Below are positions 1,487 through 33,587 of a stretch of DNA of 64,000 bases, piece by piece. Location of the stretch: the IMG/VR virus record IMGVR_UViG_3300017971_000027, positions 19,797 to 83,796 of that record; one strand, written 5' to 3'. Below the pieces are notes generated by a model. The model made no database searches. It was given only the letters and a program-made list of their open reading frames with translations, and was not told the origin of the DNA. The position numbers and the translations under genes were made by a program. The stretch is from a virus. How positions within the stretch are numbered: position 1 is the first letter of the stretch; every line of letters begins with the position of its first letter.

Positions 1487-3055
1487 CTACGCGCCGATAT
1501 CAGTCCTGCTCATGAACCCCAGCCTCGGGTCCAGATCCCAGTCAGGGAAATACGTCAGTGCCAACGCATCGGCTTTGTCTGGTGAACGGCCTATCCGTTC
1601 TTTAATATCTTTCTTTTTCTCCATCTGAATCTTGCCAGACGAATTCGTCTCATACGCCATCTCGCATAATTCTTCGAGCAGTTCATCGTCCGGCGGTAAA
1701 CACAACGTCGCGCCAAATGCAGGGTCTAAAGCATCCCGTAATTTCCAATAACATGCTGCGCGAACATTTAAGAATTGTCGCTGTCCAGTCTCGTCAGAAA
1801 CGTGCCGTGCATGAGCGGAGAATTTAACTGGTATACAGTTCGTGATTCCTTGCTCTTCAATTCGCGCATAGACACCGGCACCTTCGCCGATAGCGTCAAT
1901 AAACCCTATCGCAGTCTTGTCACGGCCAAGAATGTTTTTCAGCTCCCCTGCATGTTTCATGTGGGGATTGCCAAGACCTCGACCGGGGATTTCGAATTCG
2001 GTCACAATATCCCCGTATCGGTGGCAATATACCGAAGAGTCTGACCCCATACCAGCGATGTCCGCACCGAGTCGAAGCGAACCGTTTGTTTCCTTCTCAT
2101 CATCTTCGTTCCAATTTGACCATCGTTTGAATGCCGCTTCGACCCAAGTGCGGGGAATGAGACAGTCTTCGGATTGGCGCGGAAATTGGCCAAGTACTTT
2201 GCCGAGCATAATATCTGAAGGTCGGTACCATTGGCCTTTATAACAGAAGTCGAATTCTGTGTCTGGTTTCGCGTCGATCTCTTTGATCTTCGTACACCAC
2301 GACGGCATAAGAAGACGTTCTTCAATCCACGTCTTATCGACCTGACCCGGAATATTATTCTCGCCCGTCAGCACGTTCGGCGCGTTCAGACAGTTCAGAG
2401 TGAATTTGGCGTAGAGGGGATCGAAGAATGATTTATAAAACCCGCCCGTTATCCGAACGGGGTTGCCTACGATCAATAGGCGGGAGTTACCGGTAAGAAG
2501 ACCCTCTATCGCCCTAAATGTATCGTCCGTTATGCCGGAGGCCTCGGACATGACTACCAGAACATTTTCGCTGTGGTATCCTGTCCATGCCTCGGCTGAT
2601 TTGTCAGCTGCTTTGAATCCTTCGAGATAATGGTTCGAACCTGAGATTTTGCCTTTTTCCGGCAATGTCAGACGTTGCGTCAGTAGCCGACCTTCCAACT
2701 CTATGCCAAGGCTGGCCAACTTTTCGTTGGCGTTGTTCCACATGCCTGCAATCTCGGTCATCATGATCGACTTAACCTGACGCAGAGTTGGAGCGGTCGA
2801 GACTACTTTAGAAGGAGAATTGAGGTACAAGAACGCCAGTGATATGGCAGCAGCAACGTAATCTTTACCTCGTGCGTGACCAGAACGGACAGTTGTGCGC
2901 CGATGATCTTTGCAACACTGCACAGAATCGACGATTTCCTGTTGTTCAGGATCAAGATTTACGTGGAGAACGTCTCGAATCCATTCATTCCAGTGACCAT
3001 CCTCGAAGTCGTTTTCGGGCGTTCCACGGTAGTATGTCTTAGATTTTATTTGCAT
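1487..3055 (-). CDS. terL: Terminase large subunit
   Basis: Walker A RSGHARGKD, Walker B variant VLVVMSEASG, coupling motif GNP, nuclease domain LGADIAGMGSD, C-terminal GRSPDKADALAL. Confidence 0.93.
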   Translation of the reverse strand: MQIKSKTYYRGTPENDFEDGHWNEWIRDVLHVNLDPEQQEIVDSVQCCKDHRRTTVRSGHARGKDYVAAAISLAFLYLNSPSKVVSTAPTLRQVKSIMMTEIAGMWNNANEKLASLGIELEGRLLTQRLTLPEKGKISGSNHYLEGFKAADKSAEAWTGYHSENVLVVMSEASGITDDTFRAIEGLLTGNSRLLIVGNPVRITGGFYKSFFDPLYAKFTLNCLNAPNVLTGENNIPGQVDKTWIEERLLMPSWCTKIKEIDAKPDTEFDFCYKGQWYRPSDIMLGKVLGQFPRQSEDCLIPRTWVEAAFKRWSNWNEDDEKETNGSLRLGADIAGMGSDSSVYCHRYGDIVTEFEIPGRGLGNPHMKHAGELKNILGRDKTAIGFIDAIGEGAGVYARIEEQGITNCIPVKFSAHARHVSDETGQRQFLNVRAACYWKLRDALDPAFGATLCLPPDDELLEELCEMAYETNSSGKIQMEKKKDIKERIGRSPDKADALALTYFPDWDLDPRLGFMSRTDIGA

Positions 3056-4113: not shown

Positions 4114-6876
4114 TGCGGTTGAATCCGCTTGTTATACTCCTTGAGTTCACGTTCATATTGCATCCTTTCGGCTGGAGTGCGTAATCTGAGTGGCTTGGAA
4201 AGGTCTTTTGGCCGGTCTGGCTTTTCATTGAACCCAGCAAGCCACCCAGAGCTTATAACTACACATCTGCTCATGATATTACCCCTTCAAGCGTATTCTC
4301 AAGCACTTTTTTCGCATAATCGGCACATCGTGCGCACATTTTGGCGTATTTTGACCATTTTGTGCCTTTGTACCGTTCGATTGGGCCAATTTTGATGTCT
4401 AAAACCATCGTCTGCTCGTTGCCGGTGATTCTATTGCCACAAATGGCGCAATAATCGGAATAATGGTCAGAAAACTCCAAATCTGGCCGTCCAGTACGTG
4501 AAATTGGACTATTTTCGTCTATTTTCAGCCTTTTTTCGGGCTTTGTTCCGTTTTCGCTCATCTTTGAACTTTCTCCATGTACCATTGCGATCTACCTCGT
4601 ATGCGATTGACTCGTCGTGGTCTAAAAACTTCATCAAGGGCCGGTCAGTACGTTGATCGAGAGGTATTTTCGGGCTGTTTTTTGGCTTATTCCGGTGTTT
4701 TTTCGACATTATCAACCTCGCAACTCGATTTTTCATCAATCTTACCCTCCATTTGCTCGGCTAACTCGCCCATGACAAGGTCTGAGAGCATCTTCAGGGC
4801 CAGCGCATAGTGGACCGGTTCAGGCTCGATTTTACGTTTTTTGGCCTCTTCCATGACCTGCTCCAAAACCTCGCGATTCGCCGTGATCCCGATGCCCTGC
4901 TCGCTAATATCGAGGAAAAACTTCGAAATCGTGCAATATCCTTGGATCTGGTCGTCGGTACAGGCGTCCAGATTGTCGATTAGGTCTGTAAATTCACTCA
5001 TTTTCTATCCTTTCAGTCGCACAGCATCACGTAAAGGCCGTAAGCAACCAGCCCAACCAGCAGGACTATATACAATACTTCTTCGCTCATTCGTCAATCC
5101 TCAACTTTCGCCTGATTTGTCGTTGCTTGTTTTCCAGTTCAGATATTCTTTCCTCGAACATGGCGTCATTCGATTGCTGTTTTTCCCTTTCTTCAGGAGA
5201 TTGCAGCAATACCTCGAACTTACCACCCTCAACCATCTCCGCCATTATCGCGGACTTGGAATTACACGAGCCACACATCCACATAGAACTTCGCCTATTA
5301 TGATATGCGTATCCGTTAATTATTGACCCACAGTCGCAACATTTCTGATTCGTGGCGTAACTCATATCGCTACTCATCTACTTCTCCTGTTTCCTTACCA
5401 CCATCGCGCATTCCGTACACATCCATTCTTTCGTCGCGTGATCGTAATACGCATGTCCGTTCAGTTCAATACCACACTCGCAACATTCACGACGCACGGC
5501 GATGCTTAAACATTTCATTGGTTACATTTCTTTCGTTTTTTTATGAGCAGCTCATCAACCTCTTTCTTTGATAGATATTTTTTGCGCTGGCACTTTGACT
5601 TTTGTTTTTCTTCTTCAATCCACTCTTGAACACGCGCTCGACCTTCCTCTTTTTCTTCTGGCGTTGGCTCGCTCATACTCTCTATTCATCTCCAATCTTG
5701 TATGTCTGGAACACTCTCCATGAAGTCACTGCGAACGGCTTAAAACACTTCGCGCACATCACGTCAGGATCGTTCCACACATCGGTGTACCCCCACGAAC
5801 TTTGACCAATATTAAGTCTAGCCTCGTCGTCGCAGAACATATCATGTGGAGTGCCTTTTAGTTCTTGTGGAAGCGTTCTCTCCCCGCAATATGGACAGAC
5901 GATATATTTGCCACGAAGTCTCCAGCAGTTATTATAACTTTGTATGGCTGGACATTTATCACGAGTGGTTTCATAGCACTCGATACACAAATCATGCATC
6001 TGATATATTAAGTTGCCTTCGTCTGTGGCTTCTATTCTTGCTCCACATTTTTCACATTCGTTTCCCATATTCACATCCTCTGGCCCATACCATTCTACAG
6101 GTTCACAAGTATCATTATCACAATACGGACATTCTTGATTGTCCTCTTCATCAATAGCAACCGGATAACAACTTATATGCCATTGACCACATATTCTACA
6201 AACTACTTTTGCTACCAGCCACCCTTGACCGCCGTTAGGTATATCTTCACAGCTAAGGTCTTCCATTTCATTCAACCACATATTTTCTAGCAGACTTTTT
6301 GGCAACAGCAATCAACCTGCACATCAAGGGCCACGCCTCCTCTGGACACTCTGCGGTTTCTTCAGTGTAGTCCTTTGCTATATCCGCATCAACCTCTTCG
6401 AGAACGTCTAGCAAAACATTTTTCCAATCTATGTTTTCTACAGCTAACTCATTTCTCAATTTCGCGTTCACGGCTCTCTCCCTTTTTATCTGACCTCGCA
6501 ACCTATCTTCAATTGTTTCTTCCGACTTGTTCATACACATCGCTCTACACTCCATGTAGCACCAATAATAAACGGAATTGGATCTTCGAGAAACAAATTC
6601 ATTGTTTCCTCGTCAGACGCGCCTTCACTACAACCCCATAGCTGGTAGTTTGGTTCGACTTCGATTATAATTTTCATTCATCGTCCTCGTCCGGCATCGC
6701 GATTTGTTGGCTCGTAGACCGTAGCCAATCCTTATACGCAGCATCGTCAGAGCCGTCGGATTTGTACACGCTGAGAATCCCATCTTTAATCCCGCAGTCG
6801 TACTCGCCAGTAAACTGGTCCGAGACCACTTGGTTTGCGTTTTTGTCGAAATAGAATACTTCGATATATCTGTGCA

Positions 6877-7284
6877 TTAGTATCTCCCTGCCAGACTGAT
6901 CTGGCTTCCTGAATAACTCAGATACTCACGATGAATATCCATAGTTAGCGTGCTGTTTGTCGGTATCACGACTGCACCAATCTCGTCTCGCTTGAGTACA
7001 GGCACATTCTCGATCTTGAAATGCCACTCTTCGATTGGGAACCGACATATCTCCATCCCGTTCGTCACATCGCGAAGGATACATTCTGTATACCTGCTCG
7101 GAGCAACCGGAATCTCTCTAACCGGTACTACTTTCGGCTCAGCCAGCACGACTTTCTTCTCGTCCGCATCAACTATCTTCGCCTCGACCTGTGGCATCTT
7201 CTCGACCGGCCCGACACCTATTGTCTTGATCGTCGCACCGCCGATACCGAGCAGGCCGAGAAAGCCACGCCTATCAGTTTTCAT
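6877..7284 (-). CDS. Protein with a twin-arginine (Tat) signal-like N-terminus
   Basis: N-terminus MKTDRRGFLGLLGIGGA matches the RRxFL motif followed by a hydrophobic stretch; overlaps the end of the tatA-like gene. Confidence 0.65.
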   Translation of the reverse strand: MKTDRRGFLGLLGIGGATIKTIGVGPVEKMPQVEAKIVDADEKKVVLAEPKVVPVREIPVAPSRYTECILRDVTNGMEICRFPIEEWHFKIENVPVLKRDEIGAVVIPTNSTLTMDIHREYLSYSGSQISLAGRY

Positions 7285-7450
7285 CGTTGTCCTTTTTTTC
7301 CTTGTCGCGACCAGTCAACCCTCGCCTGAACTCGGTCATGCCTTTACCTAAATCGCCCATCACTCGCGGAAGTTTACCGGCACCAAAAAGTACCAGTACA
7401 ATAAACGCGATTATGACCATTTCCCACGGTCCTACTCCACCACCAATCAT
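7274..7450 (-). CDS. tatA: TatA/TatE family twin-arginine translocase subunit (58 aa)
   Basis: Below the ORF-track cutoff. Translation MIGGGVGPWEMVIIAFIVLVLFGAGKLPRVMGDLGKGMTEFRRGLTGRDKEKKDNDEN: TM helix, FGxxKLP hinge, amphipathic LGKGxxEF helix; AAGGAG RBS. Confidence 0.9.
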   Translation of the reverse strand: MIGGGVGPWEMVIIAFIVLVLFGAGKLPRVMGDLGKGMTEFRRGLTGRDKEKKDNDEN

Positions 7451-7497
7451 ATCTTTCTCCTTTCGTAAATTGGTTGCCGTTCAATTACCATAATACC

Positions 7498-7586
7498 ATT
7501 ATACCACAAATGAGGAACCTTTGTCAAGAGGTTTTGAGAAAGTTTGTGAAAACCTCTTGACAAGCAGTGTGGAGCTATGGTATAAT
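7498..7586. promoter_or_regulatory. Back-to-back divergent sigma70 promoters
   Basis: Minus strand TTGACA (7522-7527)-18 nt-TATAAT (7498-7503); plus strand TTGACA (7557-7562)-18 nt-TATAAT (7581-7586); both have TGG before the -10 box; gene orientation switches here. Confidence 0.9.
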
Positions 7587-8058
7587 GGAAGTGGTATGAA
7601 CAAGCGGGTAAATACAGAAAGGAGATGCGAAATGAATAATTACCCACCGGGAGTAACAGGTAGCGAGCCACAGATAGTAGGTGATGAAGAGTTTGAAGAA
7701 CTGTGTGAATGGATCTACAAGACGATGGCGATGTATGGTATCACAATTTGTGATATCAAGTGTTCGATAGCTGATTCGATAGGTGATGATGAAATGAACA
7801 TGGGGAAAGTGAGGTGGCAGGATGTATATTGAAAACCTCGACGAAAGGTACGAAGCCGTCCAACGTTTAGACGACGTCGAAAAGTTCATCTTCTACTTCA
7901 TGGGTAAGTCGGAATGGACGTGGCAGGAAGAATGGACCCACGGACAGCTGGCCCGAGAGAAGGAAGAGCTGGAAGCTGTTATAGAAGAATGGGACAAGGT
8001 AAACTCTTGACACCGGTGATCGGGTTCACCGCAAAAAAAATAAAAAAAGGAACGACGA

Positions 8059-10216
8059 ATGAAACTGACACAAGAGCAAGTCGACAACATAAACGAATTC
8101 TTCTTCTTCGACATGGAGCCAACGTTGGTAACTGGGACAAGAAGCGTCAACGAATTGGGTATAAAACCACTGTGCGACGCCTGCGGACAACGCGCCGATG
8201 TCGTAGTAACTCTTGATGATAATCCAGCATGGTTTGAAGAAGAGGAAGAAGAAGCCGAAGCCACCCAAACATTCATCTGCGGCACCTGCCTGCAAAACAT
8301 GATCGCGATGATCGAGAAAAAGCAAAAAGAGCCGTGCATATAAAACAGAAGCCGAAAGCAATTCCAAAACATCTGTGTAAATCATGCGCGATATGGATAG
8401 GTTGCAGGTGGGTCTCGACTCGAGATATGGAAACTGAACCTATTGCAACGAACCATCTGCTCTGCCAAGAATGTTATAGGAAACGGTTCCTAGTTTACGC
8501 GCACATGATGATGGACGACGGGTTCGGACGACCTACGATTAAACAGTGGCTCGACGGACAGGAACACGGAAACACCGATTGGCCGGTCGATTTCGATATG
8601 GACAGGCCGGTCGAACAGGAAAAAATGGAACAGCCGTATCAGGTCACGTTGGCCGGTGCGGAACTGGACACGCCGATAATGGAGATCGTGGACCGGTGGC
8701 GGTGTCTGGATGTATTTGTCGGGGAAGATAGTAAACGATATGAAAGGTGCAGAAAATGAACTACGCTGTACAGGCAATGCAGGAAAAACCTTCAGACAAG
8801 AATGCGGAACTTATAAACGAAGGTATTGTACAAATACTCTGTCCAGACATTGTGACTGCAACCACATACGGAAAACTGCTCTCTCTACCAATCGGGGAAG
8901 TACACAACGTCGTGGATAAAATCAGGGTCATCGAGTTCAGAATTATCATGGAACTCGAAAAAAACGAAGAAGGCATATGGCATGAGCCGACACAGATCGA
9001 CAGAATGATCGAAGAGGTAGAATAATGGAAGCCGTGACAGCTGACAAGAAAAAAATAACAACAGTATATTACGAAACCACGGTATACTCGTCGGGTGAAG
9101 CGTTCGAGATATTAGAGGCGCAGAATTTCGAGGGCGACAACGTAACAACAGAAGTCGCGAGCTATGCCTATGGACTACACTTGATTGTCTACGACGGCAA
9201 ACAGGTCGTGGGCCGGTTCCGTCGCTGGGTGGGAGTCGTGGTGACGCCGTGAAGATAGCCGACCACAAACACGCCTACTGCATCGAATGTCTCTCGCACA
9301 CCGGCCCGTTCATCGAGTTTGGCGACGAGTTTAGCACACACGAAATGTTCTGCTGGGACTGTATCAAAAAGGCCAACCGGATGCTGGGCGAGGATGCAGC
9401 TGATAAAGACGAGAAGCTGGCCCGAACCATCGAACAAGTCAAAAAGGCAGGCTGGGGCGAAGATCTTGAACAGGATATAATCGACATGCTGCTCGAAGGC
9501 AAAGAGCTTACAATGAAGTTCAGGGAGCTTGGGCGATGATTGAAATAGTAGGTGGCGGGTACGAATATGGCGAATGCGACTGCTGTAAGAAAAAAGTCGG
9601 CAAGGCTGTAAGGTATATGAAGTCGTTCAAAGCGTGGGCCACACCAATGTATTACATCTGCGAGGACTGTATCGTGGAACATATAATCAGCAGGATTCCA
9701 GCAAAGGAAGAGTCGTTCACAGGTGGGGAAGGTGGCCATATACAAGACTGGCACGGAAGGGAAGGTTGAGATGATCGAGATAGTCAAAGACGATACAATA
9801 CAGCGATGCGATAGCTGTGCAGGATGGTTCCGCTTGATGGCGGTGATAACCAAGTACGACGAACACTATCCAGACAGCCATAGGGACCGCCCACAGATAT
9901 GCGCCGACTGTCTGGCAGCTGGTAATAGGAAGATGCTGGCAGCGGAGATCGTGGCAAGACTGAAGGAGGGAAGCTGATGGAAGTCACAATGATACCGGAC
10001 GCGAACATGAAAACCTTCAAAGACGGCTCGCGATACCCGTACTGTGACAACTGCGAATCCAACGGGCCGGTGATAGTAATTGACCAAGAAACGGAAGACG
10101 ATAGCACGACCACGCTGATGCTATGCGCCCACTGCCTAAAGAAAGCGATGTACGCAGTCGAGGCCGAAGAGATGCGGGTCAGGGCGATACGGAGAAAGGC
10201 GAGGAAAGGCAGATGA
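8059..10216 (+). CDS. Cluster of small hypothetical proteins, several with CxxC...CxxC (zinc-ribbon-like)
   Basis: Tightly overlapping ORFs 8059-8343, 8334-8759, 8747-9025, 9025-9252, 9249-9539, 9536-9769, ~9771-9977, 9977-10216. Confidence 0.55.
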
Positions 10217-10482
10217 AGACCACAGTCGTCAACCGGCACAAGGAACAGTTCGACGTCTACATAGGCCGAGGCTCGAAGTGGGGCAACCCGTTCGTAATAG
10301 GCCGAGACGGTAACCGCGAACAGGTAATCGAAATATATCGTCAATGGATAAAAGGTCAACACAAGTTGCTGGCCGACCTGCACGAGCTGAAAGGCAAAAG
10401 ACTCGGGTGTTACTGTAAGCCGAAAGCGTGTCATGGAGATGTGTTAGTGGAGTTGGTGGAGGCCGGTTTTTCTGAAAAATAG
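10213..10482 (+). CDS. DUF4326 domain protein
   Basis: FDVYIGRGSKWGNPF...LHELKGKRLGCYCKPKACHGDVL. Confidence 0.85.
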   Translation: MKTTVVNRHKEQFDVYIGRGSKWGNPFVIGRDGNREQVIEIYRQWIKGQHKLLADLHELKGKRLGCYCKPKACHGDVLVELVEAGFSEK

Positions 10483-11064
10483 GAAAAAATAAAAATGGAC
10501 AAGCTCAAAAAACTCGAAGCTGCCTTGGTGTGGATTCGCAAAAACGCCGAGTGGATCAAACTATACGACCGAACAGCTCAACTATGTAAACAGTGTGGCC
10601 GTACACGCAATATCCCAGACGATGAACCGTGCGGAATCGAGATGAAACGAAAAGGACGGTACGGGTGCGACTTAAGCTGGCACACGCTCCACGGTAAAGG
10701 CGAAACATACATCGACGCAATACTCGACCTGTACAATAGGAAATGTCATAGCAAAAACAAGATCAAACTTCGCAGGCTGGTTAATGGCGAAGCTGAGGAG
10801 AAAGAATTGTGGCCGTAAGACACTGCTGTTGGAACTGCCATGAGTACTGGGTAATCCCGCCAGAAGGATGGAACGGCAAAACGGCTCTGGTCTGCTCCGA
10901 GGAATGTGCGGAGGAGTATAGAAATCGGGCGTGGGCCAAGAAAGTATACGCTGCACTGGACGGAGATGGTAGGAGCGATTTTTCTGAAAAATAGGAAAAA
11001 TTGTGTGACACCCAAACACCCAGAACTACACCCCCCTGTCAAGCATATACCCCGCCCTTTGCAC

Positions 11065-11181
11065 ATGTTCACTTTTCTGAACACGCACGTTTAATTTTCT
11101 GAACATCGGCCTTTTTTATGTTCACTTTTCTCAACATCGGCATGTTTAATTTTGTGAACGTATGTTTAATAATGTGAACGT
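11065..11181. repeat. Five 20-bp imperfect palindromes, consensus AYGTTYA-N6-TGAACRT
   Basis: Copies at 11065-11084, 11087-11106, 11118-11137, 11142-11161, 11162-11181. Confidence 0.85.
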
Positions 11182-11576
11182 CAACCTAGTTGCATTGCCC
11201 CGGATCCCGGCTCTCGATGCCCCGGAGAGAGCCCAAATAATGCCCCAAATAATGCCCCAAATCAGACCGGGAGAGAGCCGGGATCCGGGAGCCCCGGAGA
11301 GAGAGCCCCGGAGAGAGAGCCCAAATTTGCCCGGAGAGAGCCGATCCGATCCGGGGTATACCTTGCCCCAAATCCCGGATCGGATCGGATTATACCCCTA
11401 ATTTGCCCCATTACGCCCGGGATGGAATACCCCGGAGAGAGCCGGGATCCGGATCGGGATTTGCCCCGGCTCCGGGGCTCCCTCATAATGCCCCAAATTT
11501 GCCCGGAGAGCCCCAAATAATAAGAGCCCCGATCCATGTTACCGGATCGGGGCTCGATGCCCGGGATGGGGCTCTA

Positions 11577-12365
11577 TTAGACGGATCGTGCTATACTCTC
11601 CCGGGCTCTATTGGATCGGCTCCCATGGACCGGAATTACCATACCCCGTAGCGCGCCTATAGTCCGGAGCCGGGGGGATTCCAAATCCGGGATCGATCCC
11701 ATGAACGGTTTCACAACTCCCCTGCACAACTGACAATCTGCACACTCTCTCCCGGAGAGAGCCGGACACACAGTCTCCCATGGGAGCAAATCTGATTTTA
11801 TCAATTCCAAATCAGACCGGGGATCCGTTCGGAAGGTATTCCATCCCATGGAATGAGCCCGGGCGCATTCGTCCAAATTGTCAACACTAGCACATACCAG
11901 ATACCGGAGCCGGGGATCGGCGCTCTCCCATGAATGAGTGTACCCCGTCCACCCGATCTTTGGTCTTGCTCTATACCGGAGCAAATCCATCAAGACATTG
12001 ATCGGGAGAGCGGCGGGATCCCCATATGAGCCGATCCGGATCGGTTTGTTATTTGGAATGAGCCGGGGATCCGTGAAATCATATGAGCCCCGTTTATAAG
12101 CTCTATAAACGGATCCGGGCGCTTGGTGGGGGAGCACATAACATCCGGATCCGGATCGGAATTTACACTCCCCACACACACTCCGATCCGCTCCGGTCTT
12201 GACGGCTTGGCATGGACTCATGTCAGACCGTATGATCCAACTCTGCACCATATCCCCGGTCTTGATATTTTGGGATTTGCTCTCTAATCCGGAGAGCACA
12301 CACAGGATCTTGTTTCCATCTATTTGGGATTTGCCATTGTAAACTATCGTGCTATTCGCATTCAT
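11577..12365 (-). CDS. Cys-rich phage protein, possibly Fe-S/radical-SAM-like
   Basis: NIKTGDMVQSWII, CGECKFRSGSGCYV, IRIGSYGDPAA, WTGYTH, ASVD, C-terminal CP...CADCQLC; ATG at 12365 overlaps the upstream stop. Confidence 0.7.
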   Translation of the reverse strand: MNANSTIVYNGKSQIDGNKILCVLSGLESKSQNIKTGDMVQSWIIRSDMSPCQAVKTGADRSVCGECKFRSGSGCYVLPHQAPGSVYRAYKRGSYDFTDPRLIPNNKPIRIGSYGDPAALPINVLMDLLRYRARPKIGWTGYTHSWESADPRLRYLVCASVDNLDECARAHSMGWNTFRTDPRSDLELIKSDLLPWETVCPALSGRECADCQLCRGVVKPFMGSIPDLESPRLRTIGALRGMVIPVHGSRSNRARESIARSV

Positions 12366-12571
12366 GATTTTATCCCCTTTACGTAATCCATCCCGTATAC
12401 GGCGGGACGATGCCAATCCACCCGACACAACTCATCGATCGCCAAATCCAACTCATCAAGGGACCGTACCGCTCGAAACATCCGGACGATCCGATCCCGG
12501 TCTGATACGCTCCGGACCCGCTCCCGGGCAAATCCGATCCATCTCATAGATTCCGCAAATACTGATATCAT
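12362..12571 (-). CDS. Hypothetical protein in the GATC/CCGG-rich island
   Basis: ATGA overlaps with both neighbouring genes. Confidence 0.6.
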   Translation of the reverse strand: MISVFAESMRWIGFARERVRSVSDRDRIVRMFRAVRSLDELDLAIDELCRVDWHRPAVYGMDYVKGIKS

Positions 12572-12750
12572 GATACGGCCCCCTCATCAACTCCGATCCC
12601 GTAGTTGTCCAACAACTCATCGATCCACCCCATGAGCGCGACATATCCCGGATCGACGCTATCCCGGAGCCCTATAGACGGATCGTCCGGAGCGGATCCC
12701 TCATCTATCAACTCATCCCATCTCTCTATCAACTCATAGACTGTCAACAT
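12568..12750 (-). CDS. Small acidic hypothetical protein (MLTVYELIERWDELIDEG...)
   Basis: GGAG RBS; first gene after the promoter at 12815-12843. Confidence 0.6.
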   Translation of the reverse strand: MLTVYELIERWDELIDEGSAPDDPSIGLRDSVDPGYVALMGWIDELLDNYGIGVDEGAVS

Positions 12751-12814
12751 GGTCTCAACTCCCGGGGCTCTGCCCCTTGACGGCTCCCACCATGGGAGCC
12801 CCATTAACACCGTG

Positions 12815-12843
12815 ATCTTATCATATCCCCGGGCCCCTGTCAA
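12815..12843 (-). promoter_or_regulatory. sigma70 promoter for the island operon
   Basis: TTGACA-17 nt-TAAGAT with TG extension. Confidence 0.7.
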
Positions 12844-13198
12844 GAACAAAAATAAGTAATAAATCCGGAGCCCGATCCGGAGCCCGGGATCCCGGGGCAA
12901 ATCAGGGGCAAATCCGGGGCAAATTATGAGCCGGGGATCGGGGCTCCGGGAGAGCCGATCTGGGAGCCGGGATCCGGGAGCGGGATCGGGCTCATAATAA
13001 GACCACGCGCCTACACGTACAATTCCCATGCCATGTAGCAAAAAGTAAACATGTCTCATTAAGCGTTTAAATTCTAAACGAGACAGTCCGATTACAATTC
13101 TGTAATTTTAAACATCCGATCTGGCATGAATCTTGCGTGGGGGATATCACGCACTGAACATATGTTCAGTACCCCCTCTATATATGGGCAGATATCGC

Positions 13199-13248
<50 letters not shown>

Positions 13249-14195
13249 GCAAAATGAAACACTGGGTGAAATCACGCAGGCAAGAATCGTGCCAGACTGG
13301 CCAGAAATCGCGCAACGTCCGATAATGTACGTTATGTAACGTTATCTGGACACAAAGTGGGGTATATCACCCGATTTTGGGGCATTTCACCCAGCAAAAT
13401 CAACGCAAACGTTTGCGTGGCCTGAATTACAATTTCGAAAGTAAACGTTTGCGCCCCAACAGCCCGGCTTTGTGATGCAAAGTGCGAATAATGAGGTCGG
13501 CTCGGGTGTGTGTACATCCAGCGTACATGTGTGTGTGCGTGTGTGTCCGCGTGTGTGTCAGAAATCCTACCAAAATGTATGAATTACGAAATTGTAATCG
13601 GGAAAACTGGCCGAAAATTTGCAAAAACCCCTTATTTTCGCACTTTTTGTCAACAGAAAAATTTGCACGGAGCGCATATTCCCACCTTCCAGACCGTCTG
13701 TACATTCGATGTACATACCCTGTACACTGAGTGTACGTCATTATTGTATACGACTGTATACATTTTGTATACACTTTGCCGTAACCTGTTGATTAGCAAC
13801 AGTTAGCAGATATGTGGCAGATATAGGAACCATTGCTTTTTGAAACGACTGCTCAGATGTTTGTCTGAATCGTTCCGATCTTTTCCCTGTTCCGGTAGCT
13901 TGGATTGTGGTTACCATTTCCCGTCAGGCTTTCGAGAATCGTTTCTAACGGACGGGATTACTCTGGACGACTCTCGGGTAGGGTACCACCTTGGTCGGGC
14001 CTTAGAAGCGAAATTTGGAGGCCTCTGGTTGGTTCTGGTTGACCTTGGACTGTTGGTGATGCTGATGCTGGCTCGAAAGGCGGTAAAATTGGCGTGTAAC
14101 GGGCGAAGTGATCGTGGGGCAGGTCTTGGTATACCTTGGATATAAAAAAGGCCCCCTGAACGTTGTACTGTCCAGAGGGCCGAGCCTGATGCCGG

Positions 14196-19191: not shown

Positions 19192-21363
19192 GGTCTGTCT
19201 CCGTGTTGCCTCTTCTCAACCTGTCTGTACTTAGTATACCACAAATCCACCCAGTTTGTCAAGAGGTTTGTTAATACGTTTGACGGGCATCTCAAGGCCG
19301 ACTCAAGAAGCCCCGAAATGCCCGTCGGGTTGTGGAGGTATATCATGTTAGCTTGGCGGAATATCGAGCTGATGCACTCCGTTCTGGTAACCGTCCGTAA
19401 TGACCAGTTTGCCGGTCGAGCAGTTGTACACGAGCAGACCAGCGTCACCGTCTGGGCCGTTGCCGTATGGCAGGACACCAAGTCCACGGTTACCATCGAT
19501 CTGTTCATGACAGTGACCGATCAGTCGGGCCATGCTGTAGTCCTCATCGCCTTCGCGCATCCGAGGAATTGCACCTCTGACCAACTCTATTGACCGACTC
19601 CCTGCGCCGTGCAGGTACATCTCGCACGGGGCATGTCCATACTTGCTCTCGACTCTCACTACCGCTCTGTCGCCCATTGCATGTCTCCTTATGGTTTGCC
19701 GTACATCCTATATGCACGGAAGTTTCCAGTAACCTTTGCCAGCACCGCCCAGCACATCCATACATTTTATAGCTGCATCTCTGGCGTACTCGTTCCGACC
19801 GTCAATGTTTGTGTTGGTCGCCATAGTGTCGAGCCAACATAGGCACAGTTGCGTGAACGCCTGTTGCAATGTCCGGTGCTTACCCTTCATTGCGAATGCG
19901 AAATCATCCATGTCAGGTCTGCTCGACAGATTCACGAAGTCTGCCATAACATTCGCAACATCTTTCGGGTCGCTCAGGTCGACCGATACGTTCTCATACC
20001 ATTTCTTGTCAGCCATTGTCAATTCTCCTTTCTTCAACAGACAGTTCATCTATGAACCGTTTCTGCCAGTGCGCAGATGCTTTGTTTGCCAGAAGCATAA
20101 ACTCGTCATGTGGCAACATACCCTCATCCGATAGCGTCTCTAGGATGAAACGTACCTTTGCCCTGTATGCGTTCTTGGCTGCACGTTCGACCTGTTCTCC
20201 TGTCAGCGTTTCTATCATCACACACCTTCCTTCCTACCGGCGAACAACGCCAGTTCTTCTGCTCCGACCTCGAACCGTTTGCCGGTCAGAGTGTCACGAA
20301 ATACGACTGCCTTGACCTGCCGACCGAGCTTCACGTACCCGATACGCTCGAGGTACATGTACTCGGAAAGGATTCTGTCAACCGCTCGGGCTGCTTCAAA
20401 GATGTTCAACATAGTCTGTCTCCTTATGCTTCTTTGTAACCTGTTGCCAATGGCCCACGACGACCGCACATGATGCAGTAGCCGTCTGGGTCAGTATAAG
20501 CGTCACAGTTCTTGTGCAGGTACCCTCGGATGGCCCTGTCGAAACTGAACTGGACGTATTCCCATCTGTCGGTACCGGAACCTGTGACCACGTCCGGTTC
20601 CCCGTCGACCGGTTCCAACATGCATTCAGGAACGGCCAGAAGATCCATACCGTACGAGTCGTGTCGGACAGCGATTGACCGTTCGACTGGGTACACCGGC
20701 AGACCGTTCTCTTCGGCCATGTGGAAGTGTACCATCCACTTCTCGAAATGTATGCCACCTTTGTACGGGATGGCACCCAACCGTTCAACCAGAACTGCTT
20801 TGCCTTCGTGCTGAAGTTGCATCGGAATGTCTTTATATATGCTGACCGTCTGTCCTGTTTCGAGCACTGCCATTGTCTTGGCCTCCTTGTTGTTTCCGTT
20901 ATTCCCAACCTGTCTGGCACCTAATATATCACAAACAGGTACCACTTGTCAAGGACTTTTTTCGCGCTTGTTTCAAGCAGGTTTTACAGTATGAACCAAA
21001 CACTGCCTGATGCACGTCAAGTTCCAATGGATTACACGGTACGCTCACCCAGACATGAGCGTTATACCTCTGGACGTACCCGCCACGCTCATACTTCTTA
21101 TTCTTCTCACAACCACACAGTGTAACTGTCTTGCCTGCTTCGTTCCGATAACATATGTGAGTCTTCGTGGACTCTTCGCCAATCCAGCATATGCGATATT
21201 CTGTAGCCATTGTCATTCTCCTTCTGTTGATTGCCTCACTGTGATCCTAGTATACCACATCCAGACGGAAAAGTCAAGAACTTTTTTCACTTTCATTCTA
21301 CTGGCCATTTTCAACCGTGGTTGAAAGCGTTGAAACCTAGGTTGAAACTTGCTTGTCCAGCAC

Positions 21364-31619: not shown

Positions 31620-33587
31620 TCATATCGCACACGTATCCCCATCACAGAACTTCTCTTCGACCTCATGAGTGTTCAACATTGACCAGTCTATTGGCTTGAG
31701 CTTGGCTATACACTTCTCGTACTCGTTCTGGCTAATTGCTTGGAACGGTGCCTGCTCAAAAAGATGGTCTTCAAGCGGTAGAAATGAGAGGGATTTAAGA
31801 TCGGCCTCGAACATTGAAATAGCTCGGGCAATATCTTTTTTTTCTTCTGGCCTGAAGGTGATAGTGACAGACACCTGATTATCACTCCACCATCTCTGGA
31901 CTTGTGAAACAAGAGCGAGCTGTTCCCACATCGACACATCTTCTCTCGAGCGCGAGAAATACGCATCTTCTTTGATTGGGAAATAGACGACATGCGTCGA
32001 GTCTTTTGCTTTACTCTTCTCAATTCTGTACCCTGCCTTTCGTAATGGCTTAAGGAGCGGAGAATGTTTCGAAAACCGCACCGTCCTATAGTAATACTCC
32101 GCGTATGGATAGTGGATACCGAAGTTCGCGCCGGGAAGCATCGACACTGTTCCTGACGGTTTGACCGTAGTAGTCTTAATCGACCTCGGTATACACAACC
32201 AATCCGAATACATCTTATCGAGCTGTTGGATATAGTTGTACCCCTTGTCGCACCATGTCAGATACTCCCGCAGACCGAGCCTATTCACCGCCTGCACAAT
32301 TCCAGACTGCGACAGACCTATTCGCCTGTTCCGCAACATAAGAGCATTTGTTCTCTCATAGTGCGTTGGTATGAGCGTAACTGTCTTTGCGTAGAGATAT
32401 GCAAACTTTAGTGTTCGCCGGTATTCGTCAATGCTTTCGTGCCGTGCAGGAAAAGACTCGACGACGTTACACATCTCGTAAGACTCAAGGGTCTGTTCAC
32501 CGCATGGATTCGTTCCTCTTGCCTTTTCATCTCGCCAATCAGCTTCGTCAACGGTACGACCGTATTTCTGTGCGTTCTCAAGCCAGAACAATCCCGGCTC
32601 ACCGTTCTTTGACAGCATACCGACAACGCGCTCGTAGTCCATGCCAACCTCAGCCATAACCGAGTTGTTAGACGCCCACCTGTGATGCTGTAGTTCGTCG
32701 CCGTGTTTCTCAGGGTCCTTTAACGAGAGATACGCTTCATCGTCTGGAGACCCAAGAGCCAGTCCCGCCGACCGTCTAACCCCTCCGCTTACCACACACT
32801 TTCCTATCATGTTCATTATGTCGACGATATCGACAGATCTGATAGACGTGTCGATCCTGTCGCATAATATTGACTCGATATCTTCGAGTGCTTGTTTAAG
32901 TGGCCCCGGCCCCGGCGCAATCCCGCCAAACGTCTTGATCGGAGCGCCTGCCGGTCGAATCGCACTGAAGTCGAACGACTCTGGCAACCCGCCATCCCCA
33001 GCATATGCGTCCAGAAGGGTCTTAACGGCTTCTACCCAGCCTTCTTTCGAGTCTGCTATGGTCATACTACCCTTAAGCTCGATTGGACGTTGTATGGCGA
33101 TTTTGCCAGCACCTTTGGTATCAAACGCAACGCCAACACCCAGCAGAGACATGTCCATCGCGAAACAGAATGGCTCAGAGAAACCAACCTTGTCGAAATC
33201 TTCAGTAGACACGAACGCACAGTTGTTCAAAGCTGCTGAACCCCTCATATAAATATAGTCCGTTCCCATCATCCAGAGGCCACGACCGGGGGGCAGGAAC
33301 TTGAACTCGAACATAAGGTCGAACATCTCCTGTGCCGACCTTTGTGCTTTGAGCGGGTTCCACGGCAGATGGTATGTCAGACAATGGTTCCATTGAATAG
33401 TATAACATCCTTCTACTACCCTTCTTAATGTCTCATACCATTCCTCGGTCCTGTTCTCGTTCTGGATCTCGCGAGCGTAGGTGCGTTTGTATGTCACGTA
33501 CCCGAGCGGACCCCAATCTGGTTCCCGTTCTTTGTACTGTTCGATAAACGAATCGTCGAGCTGGAATTTCTGTTGTATGTTTAACAA
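31620..33587 (-). CDS. nrdJ: Class II (AdoCbl-dependent) ribonucleotide reductase, monomeric type
   Basis: PPGRGLW, ALNNCAF, GGVRRSA, GTNPCGEQ, TTVKPSGT, C-terminal CDGDTC. Confidence 0.93.
   Translation of the reverse strand: MLNIQQKFQLDDSFIEQYKEREPDWGPLGYVTYKRTYAREIQNENRTEEWYETLRRVVEGCYTIQWNHCLTYHLPWNPLKAQRSAQEMFDLMFEFKFLPPGRGLWMMGTDYIYMRGSAALNNCAFVSTEDFDKVGFSEPFCFAMDMSLLGVGVAFDTKGAGKIAIQRPIELKGSMTIADSKEGWVEAVKTLLDAYAGDGGLPESFDFSAIRPAGAPIKTFGGIAPGPGPLKQALEDIESILCDRIDTSIRSVDIVDIMNMIGKCVVSGGVRRSAGLALGSPDDEAYLSLKDPEKHGDELQHHRWASNNSVMAEVGMDYERVVGMLSKNGEPGLFWLENAQKYGRTVDEADWRDEKARGTNPCGEQTLESYEMCNVVESFPARHESIDEYRRTLKFAYLYAKTVTLIPTHYERTNALMLRNRRIGLSQSGIVQAVNRLGLREYLTWCDKGYNYIQQLDKMYSDWLCIPRSIKTTTVKPSGTVSMLPGANFGIHYPYAEYYYRTVRFSKHSPLLKPLRKAGYRIEKSKAKDSTHVVYFPIKEDAYFSRSREDVSMWEQLALVSQVQRWWSDNQVSVTITFRPEEKKDIARAISMFEADLKSLSFLPLEDHLFEQAPFQAISQNEYEKCIAKLKPIDWSMLNTHEVEEKFCDGDTCAI

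Follow-up and report, generated by a model that had tools for sequence, protein, structure and literature searches.

A palindrome-saturated gene cassette in a marine tailed phage genome otherwise depleted of restriction-site palindromes

How can a phage genome that lacks many kinds of 6-bp palindrome over almost its entire length contain one short segment crowded with them? The question is raised by the tailed marine phage of IMG/VR record IMGVR_UViG_3300017971_000027, in which an island of ~1.8 kb, 2% of the genome length, surrounds a gene of the DUF7227/GP88 family. The island was examined within a 64,000-nucleotide stretch of the record, positions 19,797 to 83,796 (the window, to which coordinates refer unless another source is named). 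The record is an 83,796-bp contig whose 123-bp end overlap is an assembly overlap, giving a circular assembly of 83,673 bp. The genome encodes a large terminase, a J-type tail fibre, a B12-dependent ribonucleotide reductase and a helicase. The 81.9 kb of the genome outside the island are referred to as the bulk.

Exact counts over the 83,673 bp placed every genomic copy of GGATCC (11), TCCGGA (11), CCCGGG (9) and CCATGG (4) within positions 11202-12975 and none in the bulk. The same was found for GRGCYC (G[AG]GC[CT]C), with 20 of 20 genomic sites in the island, and all sites of these five kinds fall in 11190-13000. The density of GATC is 23.6 per kb in the island versus 2.75 per kb outside and that of CCGG is 31 versus 4 per kb. 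Conversely, GTCGAC, TTCGAA and GGTACC, present in 44, 40 and 38 copies genome-wide, have no copy in the island. A preliminary description of the window, made by eye, had reported both the concentration of GGATCC-type words in this segment and the absence of the latter three; the counts agree on both points, and for the first the contrast is stronger than was noted. The possibility which it allowed, that these palindromes occur at normal frequency elsewhere, was not what was found. Its description of the island as sharply bounded also held, although the right edge lies at about 13000 and not at 13050, and the palindrome array (11067-11194) and TG block ((TG)23 at 13201-13247) that it placed on either side are real.

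In tetranucleotide composition no part of the window deviates more than the island (L1 distance 0.82 versus a mean of 0.33, standard deviation 0.08), and its complexity is also the lowest there (z of -3 to -7). The hexamers occur in the island at the rate which a Markov-3 model predicts from the island's 4-mers (12.1, 8.4 and 9.6 expected versus 11, 11 and 9 observed). They are therefore by-products of a vocabulary of 4-mers, and the enrichment is not of the hexamers as such. Among the 58 island copies of CCGG none is of the form RCCGGY; most are YCCGGR, a class nearly absent from the bulk.

In the bulk, 13 kinds of 6-bp palindrome have no copy at all where 237 would be expected in total. Seven of these 13 are present in the island, with 38 copies versus 8 expected from island base composition. 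About 26 of the 64 possible 6-bp palindromes are strongly depleted in the bulk, and CCWGG is absent from the whole genome (0 versus 107 expected); its expected number in the island depends on the model, being 5.5 by Markov-1 and 0.5 by both Markov-2 and Markov-3. Bulk GATC and CCGG, with observed/expected ratios (O/E) of 0.67 and 1.14, are at or below expectation. CCGG itself is not avoided there, but 58% of its bulk copies are RCCGGY. The bulk pattern is classical restriction avoidance in one of its clearest and strongest forms. No match to the DNA methyltransferase families PF01555, PF00145 and PF02086 (N6/N4, C5 and D12) was found in the genome.

A chimeric misassembly, the other possibility allowed by the preliminary description, was considered and rejected. 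A 50.6-kb Logan contig from two public runs, which may be a single data set, spans both island edges with 0 differences and ends only on reaching the (TG)n run, and the Logan contigs break at 13192-13256. With both edges bridged in this way a chimeric join is excluded as far as contigs can show, and the central gene is an intact member of its family. No DNA similarity to GenBank phages was detected, and a search for close relatives of the phage using the neighbouring proteins and the large terminase found none.

The components of the island are as follows, the promoter and terminator being predictions from consensus matches.

11190-11523, no strand: left non-coding flank, beyond the operon terminator; its densest words are CCGGAGAGAGCC, GGGATCC and GCCCCAAAT, with tandem units of 12 and 14 nt.
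11524-11555, minus strand: intrinsic-terminator-like hairpin from a terminator scan, a 13-bp stem with a T run behind it, immediately past the stop of the DUF7227 gene.
11577-12365, minus strand: DUF7227/GP88-family gene of 262 amino acids, assigned by profile match, alignment and structure model.
12362-12571, minus strand: 69-amino-acid ORFan, isoelectric point 9.1, coupled to both neighbours by ATGA overlaps.
12568-12750, minus strand: 60-amino-acid, strongly acidic ORFan (isoelectric point 4.05; 15 D+E, 2 K+R), the first gene of the operon.
12751-13000, no strand: right non-coding flank containing the promoter; upstream of the promoter it has three copies of GGGGCAAAT and GGGATCCGGGAGC-type tandem units.
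12815-12843, minus strand: predicted sigma-70-like promoter, TTGACA-17-TAAGAT with an extended -10 TG (10/12 consensus positions), reading leftward into the three genes.

The 60-amino-acid ORFan has a ribosome-binding site, GGGAG, 8 nt upstream of its ATG, and no true homologue of it was found among 1.84 billion representative proteins. The 69-amino-acid ORFan matched only itself among 5.8 billion proteins. The island vocabulary continues for 330 bp past the terminator and for ~150 bp upstream of the promoter, with tandem units of 5-14 nt in the flanks. The right flank partly mirrors the left as inverted repeats (repeats I19, I3, I5 and I7), for example the 15 nt at 11199-11213 and 12964-12978, which are 100% complementary. 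Long perfect hairpin arms are present in the left flank at 11199-11215/11273-11289 and 11341-11355/11374-11388, and as single-stranded DNA this flank folds with -93 kcal/mol (z = -7.0 versus shuffled sequences). A search for known RNA families gave only sub-threshold chance hits.

Genes and flanks share one signature at the level of the DNA. All four island sub-segments, coding and non-coding, have the same abnormal dinucleotide ratios (AT ~2, CC/GG 1.2-1.6, AC/GT 0.17-0.75), the left flank being at the extreme with 0.17 for AC/GT and 2.4 for AT, and this signature is unlike that of any ordinary genome. Codon usage differs sharply from that of 14 other genes of the phage, which served as the reference for the bulk: GGA+GGG make up 84% versus 32%, CGG 62% versus 18% and GAT 81% versus 42%. 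Within the 262-amino-acid gene the words occur in all three frames (GATC 5, 6 and 7 times in frames 0, 1 and 2). Synonymous resampling of this gene with the codon usage of the phage gave 8.0 expected GATC where 18 are present and 4.6 expected CCGG where 20 are present. Even permutation of its own synonymous codons gave only 11.7 GATC (P = 0.004) and 10.2 CCGG (P < 0.0003). The words touch 19% of conserved, 27% of variable and 38% of inserted codons. An 18-residue insertion specific to the window protein (residues 222-239, positions 11649-11702), placed by the structure model in a low-confidence or disordered loop, is made of island words and is an inverted near-copy of a flank segment.

Repeats of 10-12 nt are far above Markov-3 expectation and are common to genes and flanks (k = 12: 23 versus 3.7 ± 2.9), the word repeats being 8-16 nt long. 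No strong period near 10.5 bp, fixed spacing or defined motif was found among the sites, and thus the island lacks the mark of a classical binding-site array. The pattern suggests cryptically simple DNA, produced by local duplication, inversion and short-patch conversion and filtered by protein function.

The central protein matched phrog_2554 with E = 1e-53 and has 84 near-length homologues of up to 46% identity, in a family found at no fewer than 600 metagenomic loci and in 151 sequenced phages. In an alignment of 41 sequences the window protein keeps 19 of 19 invariant columns, including C64, C67, C75, C200, C208, C211, C214 and H247. Its neighbours in the protein atlas are DUF7227/GP88 (PF23872/PF17338); it had no Pfam hit of its own at E <= 0.1, though its homologues do hit. 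The structure model (predicted local distance difference test score, pLDDT, 89) resembles the partial barrels of radical S-adenosylmethionine (SAM) enzymes, but only weakly. The best matches were the radical-SAM proteins QueE (Z 5.0, root-mean-square deviation 5.3 Å), PFL-AE (4.3) and viperin (4.2), most of the next dozen were also radical-SAM, and spore photoproduct lyase is among the similar folds. The cysteine spacing is C-x2-C-x7-C, the canonical radical-SAM CxxxCxxC being absent, and a profile search of the PDB with the DUF7227 protein returned nothing. No conserved gene neighbours of the family and no mention of it in the literature were found. Longer fused forms of the protein were also not found, which is weak evidence.

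Do homologues of this gene lie in similarly skewed DNA, as the preliminary description suggested should be checked? They do in the cultured Roseobacter phage CRP-811 (PV211010.1; loci L099/L100) and in a metagenomic clade of three loci, L055, L067 and L093. CRP-811 has a sharply bounded 2.5-kb GCGC/CGCG island centred on the homologue (L1 distance 0.73 versus 0.33), which runs from record position 32450 through the origin to 2400 and begins directly upstream of the small terminase gene. All 8 copies of six palindromes absent from the other 30 kb of CRP-811 lie in this island (P about 1e-9). The paper describing CRP-811 does not mention palindromes or termini. Its close relative CRP-821 (PV211011.1), whose flanks are 80-85% identical to those of CRP-811, has an unrelated module of normal composition at the island locus, and this swap indicates that the island region is exchangeable. 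In the L055 clade, of 70-79% nucleotide identity, the gene and ~2 kb around it are saturated with GCGC/CGCG; in ~780 nt there are 34 (L055), 29 (L067) and 20 (L093) copies of GCGC versus ~5 expected. The gene of Ruegeria phage RpAliso is 68-74% identical to those of this clade and has a milder GCGC excess. The dominant island words of CRP-811 and of the L055 clade are not among the words which their bulk avoids. The midpoints of island and gene differ by ~90 to 440 bp in the window, CRP-811 and L055, and the gene regions of Caulobacter phage S2B and Mycobacterium phage jiawei are moderate compositional outliers (z about 3).

Most homologue loci have no island. The window around the gene ranked first for palindrome enrichment in only 6 of 28 loci and was the most deviant window of the locus in 14 of 38, and phages Che12 and Ma-LMM01 show none, so a universal island around all homologues was rejected. 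A family-wide exemption from locally avoided palindromes was also rejected (O/E 0.42 in the genes versus 0.37 in control windows); the excess of gene over flanks in 27 of 35 loci is due to palindromes that are not avoided. Chi-like polar words were rejected as well. In the window CCGGAGAG is found 8:0 and GAGAGCC 9:1 on the two strands, clear polarity being confined to CCGGAGAG-type words of the window and weak in CRP-811 and L067.

Two further observations were made in these genomes. At 7224-8983 CRP-821 has DNA cytosine methyltransferase genes where CRP-811 has PD-(D/E)XK nuclease-like genes. In L055 a module of ~100 bp (…CCCCTACTCCGCCGGTGTCCGCCCGCGTTTCCTGACCTC…AATAAAAATTTC) is found at 5398-5500, 7249-7360 and in further copies upstream of several genes; it is kept in L067 and in locus L088 and probably serves as a promoter or regulatory element specific to the phage.

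In phages with defined ends the homologues lie 0.8-6.5 kb (mostly 0.8-4 kb) from one genome end, as the second to fifth gene of an early operon reading inward from that end. The homologue is the second gene from the early end in the T7-like phage jiawei, the third in S2B (T7-like, with an annotated 259-bp terminal repeat) and the fifth from the right end in Che12. In dozens of cluster A and M mycobacteriophages and Gordonia phages its distance from the right end is 1.2-3.6 kb, and more than 60 actinobacteriophages show similar positions. In lambda-type phages the right end of the DNA is the first to enter the cell, in T7 the left. Judged from gene order and this textbook biology, the end near the homologues would be the first to be injected, and DUF7227 would be an early gene typical of the leading end. 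S2B and jiawei show no exemption from palindrome avoidance at their leading ends, where 0 and 1 copies of avoided palindromes are present versus 9 and 14.5 expected. The contigs of other phages often end within 1-1.5 kb of the DUF7227 gene, as in L003, L004 and L040. HNH endonuclease genes are found beside the homologue in L003 (~700-1340) and L040 (~7140-7470), within ~1.5 kb of the contig ends, a position which fits proximity to a cos-type genome end. At its start (1-170) the 47.6-kb viral contig of L004 has a CCATGG-rich array of the (CATGGG)n type, which lies 1 kb upstream of the homologue, and this is another simple-sequence tract beside a member of the family that ends an assembly.

What then is the island? 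The explanation preferred here, though with confidence that stops a little short of even, is a mobile, self-contained, moron-type early cassette of cryptically simple DNA which has escaped the site purge of its genome. It draws on the observed anatomy, composition and repeat structure, on the recurrence of islands around the same gene family and on the CRP-811/CRP-821 swap. The cassette would run from the sigma-70-like promoter through the acidic 60-amino-acid ORFan, the 69-amino-acid ORFan and the DUF7227/GP88 protein, a putative iron-sulphur (Fe-S) protein, to the terminator, together with the repeat-rich flanks, and would probably be expressed early. Its coding and non-coding DNA would be built from a few words of 8-16 nt containing GATC, CCGG, GAGCC, G/C runs and AAAT. 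Duplication, inversion and short-patch conversion would multiply these words locally, with the protein kept intact by purifying selection. The cassette would be foreign to, or young in, the genome, having probably been acquired horizontally, and would be continually rewritten in its own vocabulary; it would for that reason not have been purged of the palindromes eliminated from the other 82 kb. The load of GGATCC, TCCGGA, CCCGGG, CCATGG and GRGCYC would then be an accident of vocabulary, the opposite restriction signature a by-product, and the sites probably without function of their own. The lack of conserved neighbours of the DUF7227 family was counted in favour of movement between contexts.

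Several observations weigh against this explanation. Should the present host have the enzymes responsible for the bulk avoidance in active form, the island's sites, 60 or more in 1.8 kb, would be expected to be lethal unless protected. No close relative was found, so acquisition by this phage must be deduced. The GCGC load of L055, L067 and L093 has been kept across 21-30% divergence with site conservation of 0.65-0.76 versus a background of 0.44, with turnover, and this is more in keeping with selection, or with a persistent directional process, than with a passive foreign origin. In CRP-811 the swapped module is wider than the island, so the composition of a donor is insufficient on its own. 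Finally, the CRP-811 gene is only 37-39% identical to those of RpAliso and the L055 clade yet it has the same GCGC vocabulary, the hosts being of the Roseobacter group, which hints at a host-linked factor or convergence. The density in L055, the shared roseophage vocabulary, the width in CRP-811 and the liability of the sites keep three of the explanations below alive, namely a selected site array, a first-injected segment and an effect of the protein upon its own DNA.

The island could be a cis-acting array selected for dense short palindromes, with a vocabulary set by a host- or phage-specific factor recognising 4-6-bp palindromes. Such an array might be a control region for methylation or sequestration, a platform near a terminus for a packaging, ejection or end-protection protein, or a structured DNA or RNA element. 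Site density maintained with positional turnover in the L055 clade and one vocabulary in two distant roseophage lineages would be expected of it. The CRP-811 island occupies the usual place of cos or pac sites, directly upstream of the small terminase gene, and the hairpin potential of the left flank, the strand-polar words and the operator-like and iteron-like arrays adjoining the island also suit it. However, the words form an overlapping blur with no defined motif, spacing or helical phasing, TGATCA-type elements as in P1 pac are lacking, no member of the three main methyltransferase families is encoded by the genome, an island is lacking at most DUF7227 loci and the polarity is weak in CRP-811 and L067. 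A selected array is regarded as unlikely. The preliminary description had instead interpreted the island as a terminal, first-injected (pre-early) segment under a different restriction or methylation regime, by analogy with first-step transfer in T5. The leading-end position of the homologues in jiawei, S2B, Che12 and more than 60 actinobacteriophages gives this idea partial support, as do the strong host-type predicted promoter of the operon with 1.1 kb of repeat-rich non-coding DNA upstream and the tendency of the L003, L004 and L040 contigs to end near the gene. A segment under a site regime different from the rest is indeed present, but the T5 analogy is reversed. The first-step segment of T5 lacks restriction sites that the rest of the T5 genome carries, and first-entering DNA, as in T5 and T7, should avoid sites, whereas here it is the island that carries sites which the bulk lacks (38 copies of seven palindromes versus 0). 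Moreover, the leading ends of S2B and jiawei are still poor in avoided palindromes, and 8-10 kb containing other genes separate the island from the terminase genes (large terminase at 1487-3055, ~8 kb from the island). PHROG, Pfam and NCBIfam searches of the three genes identified DUF7227 and two ORFans and no T5 pre-early gene of the A1/A2/dmp type. A first-injected segment appears improbable.

DUF7227 may be a DNA-acting, radical-SAM-like enzyme with a preference for DNA adjoining its own gene, whose action, or the repair provoked by it, over time drives nearby DNA towards its recognition words. The rough centring of the anomaly on the gene in the window, CRP-811 and L055 is in line with this, as are the equal effect on coding and non-coding DNA, the deviant gene windows in 14 of 38 loci with S2B and jiawei as moderate outliers, the likeness of the fold to QueE, spore photoproduct lyase and other radical-SAM enzymes and the seven invariant cysteines. 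Against it, the fold match is weak and without the canonical cysteine motif, most homologue loci have no island, the same vocabulary accompanies orthologues only 37-39% identical, and the nearest analogy, very-short-patch repair, acts genome-wide. We know of no site-creating enzyme of this kind, and such a footprint is considered quite improbable. A DNA decoy titrating host restriction enzymes or methyltransferases, also proposed in the preliminary description, has in its favour that the 60 or more copies belong to exactly the site classes eliminated from the bulk, and that the first gene of the operon encodes a small, very acidic protein. However, an injected linear genome is normally lost once it is cut at any point, and restriction enzymes turn over. 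The hexamers are no commoner than the 4-mer vocabulary predicts, and the dominant island words of CRP-811 and the L055 clade are not avoided in their bulk. The decoy found no support, and it is the least likely of the explanations, very improbable indeed. Across the phages compared, it is conceivable though doubtful that DUF7227/GP88 genes are the centre of an undescribed feature, a palindrome-saturated island of 2-2.5 kb with words that follow the host group (GATC/CCGG in this phage, GCGC/CGCG in the roseophages). Such islands would be kept by selection for site density or by cis action of the putative Fe-S enzyme, the sites being functional substrates or footprints.

The preferred explanation, a moron-type cassette, can be compared with known systems. 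Morons, a term defined for lambdoid and HK97-type phages, are accessory cassettes that stand as autonomous units in a phage genome. The island resembles them in having its own predicted promoter and terminator, accessory genes and a composition distinct from its surroundings (in L1 distance, dinucleotides and codons), and the equivalent CRP-811 island lies at a swap-prone locus. Unlike a moron, its composition is not simply that of another genome but extremely low in complexity and rich in palindromes (AT ratio ~2), and islands recur around one gene family with differing words. Cryptically simple DNA, Rickettsia palindromic elements and PARCELs share with the island short words in either orientation in coding and non-coding DNA and an in-frame insertion in a surface loop, here with (TG)23 adjoining. 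The island differs from them in being confined to a 1.8-kb cassette, in having no unit element and in the recoding of synonymous sites of conserved residues. The cyanobacterial HIP1 sequence (GCGATCGC) and the CCWGG excess attributed to very-short-patch repair are similar in that methylation-type cores (GATC, CCGG and GCGC in the islands) are over-represented in all frames and the vocabulary appears to go with the host group. Those signals, however, are genome-wide in bacteria with cognate methyltransferases, whereas the island is local and phage-borne in a genome encoding no PF01555, PF00145 or PF02086 enzyme, and the bulk O/E values of GATC and CCGG show no such spread.

With the T5 first-step region and the T7 class I early region the island shares a host-type promoter and, through the homologues in T7-like phages and actinobacteriophages, a leading-end early location; it differs in that sites are concentrated instead of absent and in having no homologue of T5 A1/A2/dmp or T7 ocr. 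Dam-regulated P1 pac and the GATC clusters at oriC and P1 oriR also show a local GATC excess beside iteron-like repeats. These clusters are of 150-250 bp as opposed to 1.8 kb, and the island has no TGATCA/G (TGATCA, 0 copies), equal enrichment of CCGG and GAGCC and no adjacent initiator or terminase gene, unlike the TGATCA/G clusters beside terminase of P1-type pac sites. Of the features of an origin, repeat arrays (11067-11194 and 13138-13393) and an AT-rich stretch (~13550-13850) adjoin the island, but there is no initiator in the vicinity, and more than 20 kb separate the island from the helicase and recombinase genes.

Avoidance of restriction sites is taken to hold for a phage genome as a whole, yet a strongly avoiding genome here holds at least 60 sites in 2% of its length, and the cultured roseophage CRP-811 shows the same contrast at a locus adjoining terminase. 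Tolerance of the sites would mean that the phage does not currently meet the enzymes inferred from avoidance, and that avoidance profiles tell less about present hosts than assumed. If the sites are protected or used, a hitherto unknown local mechanism of protection or signalling would be tied to a very common early phage gene. In either case the island allows a test of the speed at which forces acting on the DNA can recode a gene while its protein stays the same, for which CRP-811 and CRP-821 are a tractable pair.

The DNA on either side of the island has ordinary genes and two further non-coding features outside the island vocabulary.

11067-11194, no strand: array of five ~20-bp imperfect palindromes (TGTTCA-N5-7-TGAACA; repeat family D2), with a period-20 tandem repeat at 11142-11181.
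13060-14150, no strand: non-coding region of ~1.1 kb adjoining the island, ending at the terminator of the upstream gene (14181-14150).

The palindrome array, of ordinary composition, lies between the end of a rightward gene block (10994) and the island. It occupies 130 bp between convergent transcription units and resembles operators for a dimeric DNA-binding protein. The gene-free region on the right contains (TG)23, two AAACGTTTGCG palindromes, the AT-rich stretch and, at 13138-13393, four 16-bp TGGGKnWWWTCACSCR repeats (family D12); these repeats, the palindromes and the AT-rich segment may make it an origin or regulatory hub. The perfect (TG)23 microsatellite is 200 bp from the island, which is depleted in the same AC/GT and CA/TG steps, and a second TG-rich 31-mer (13528-13558) matches very abundant short metagenome contigs. 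On the left, 8700-10994 is filled with small rightward genes converging on the island operon, several of which encode paired CxxC motifs (one with a weak zf-FCS match), together with a DUF4326 protein.

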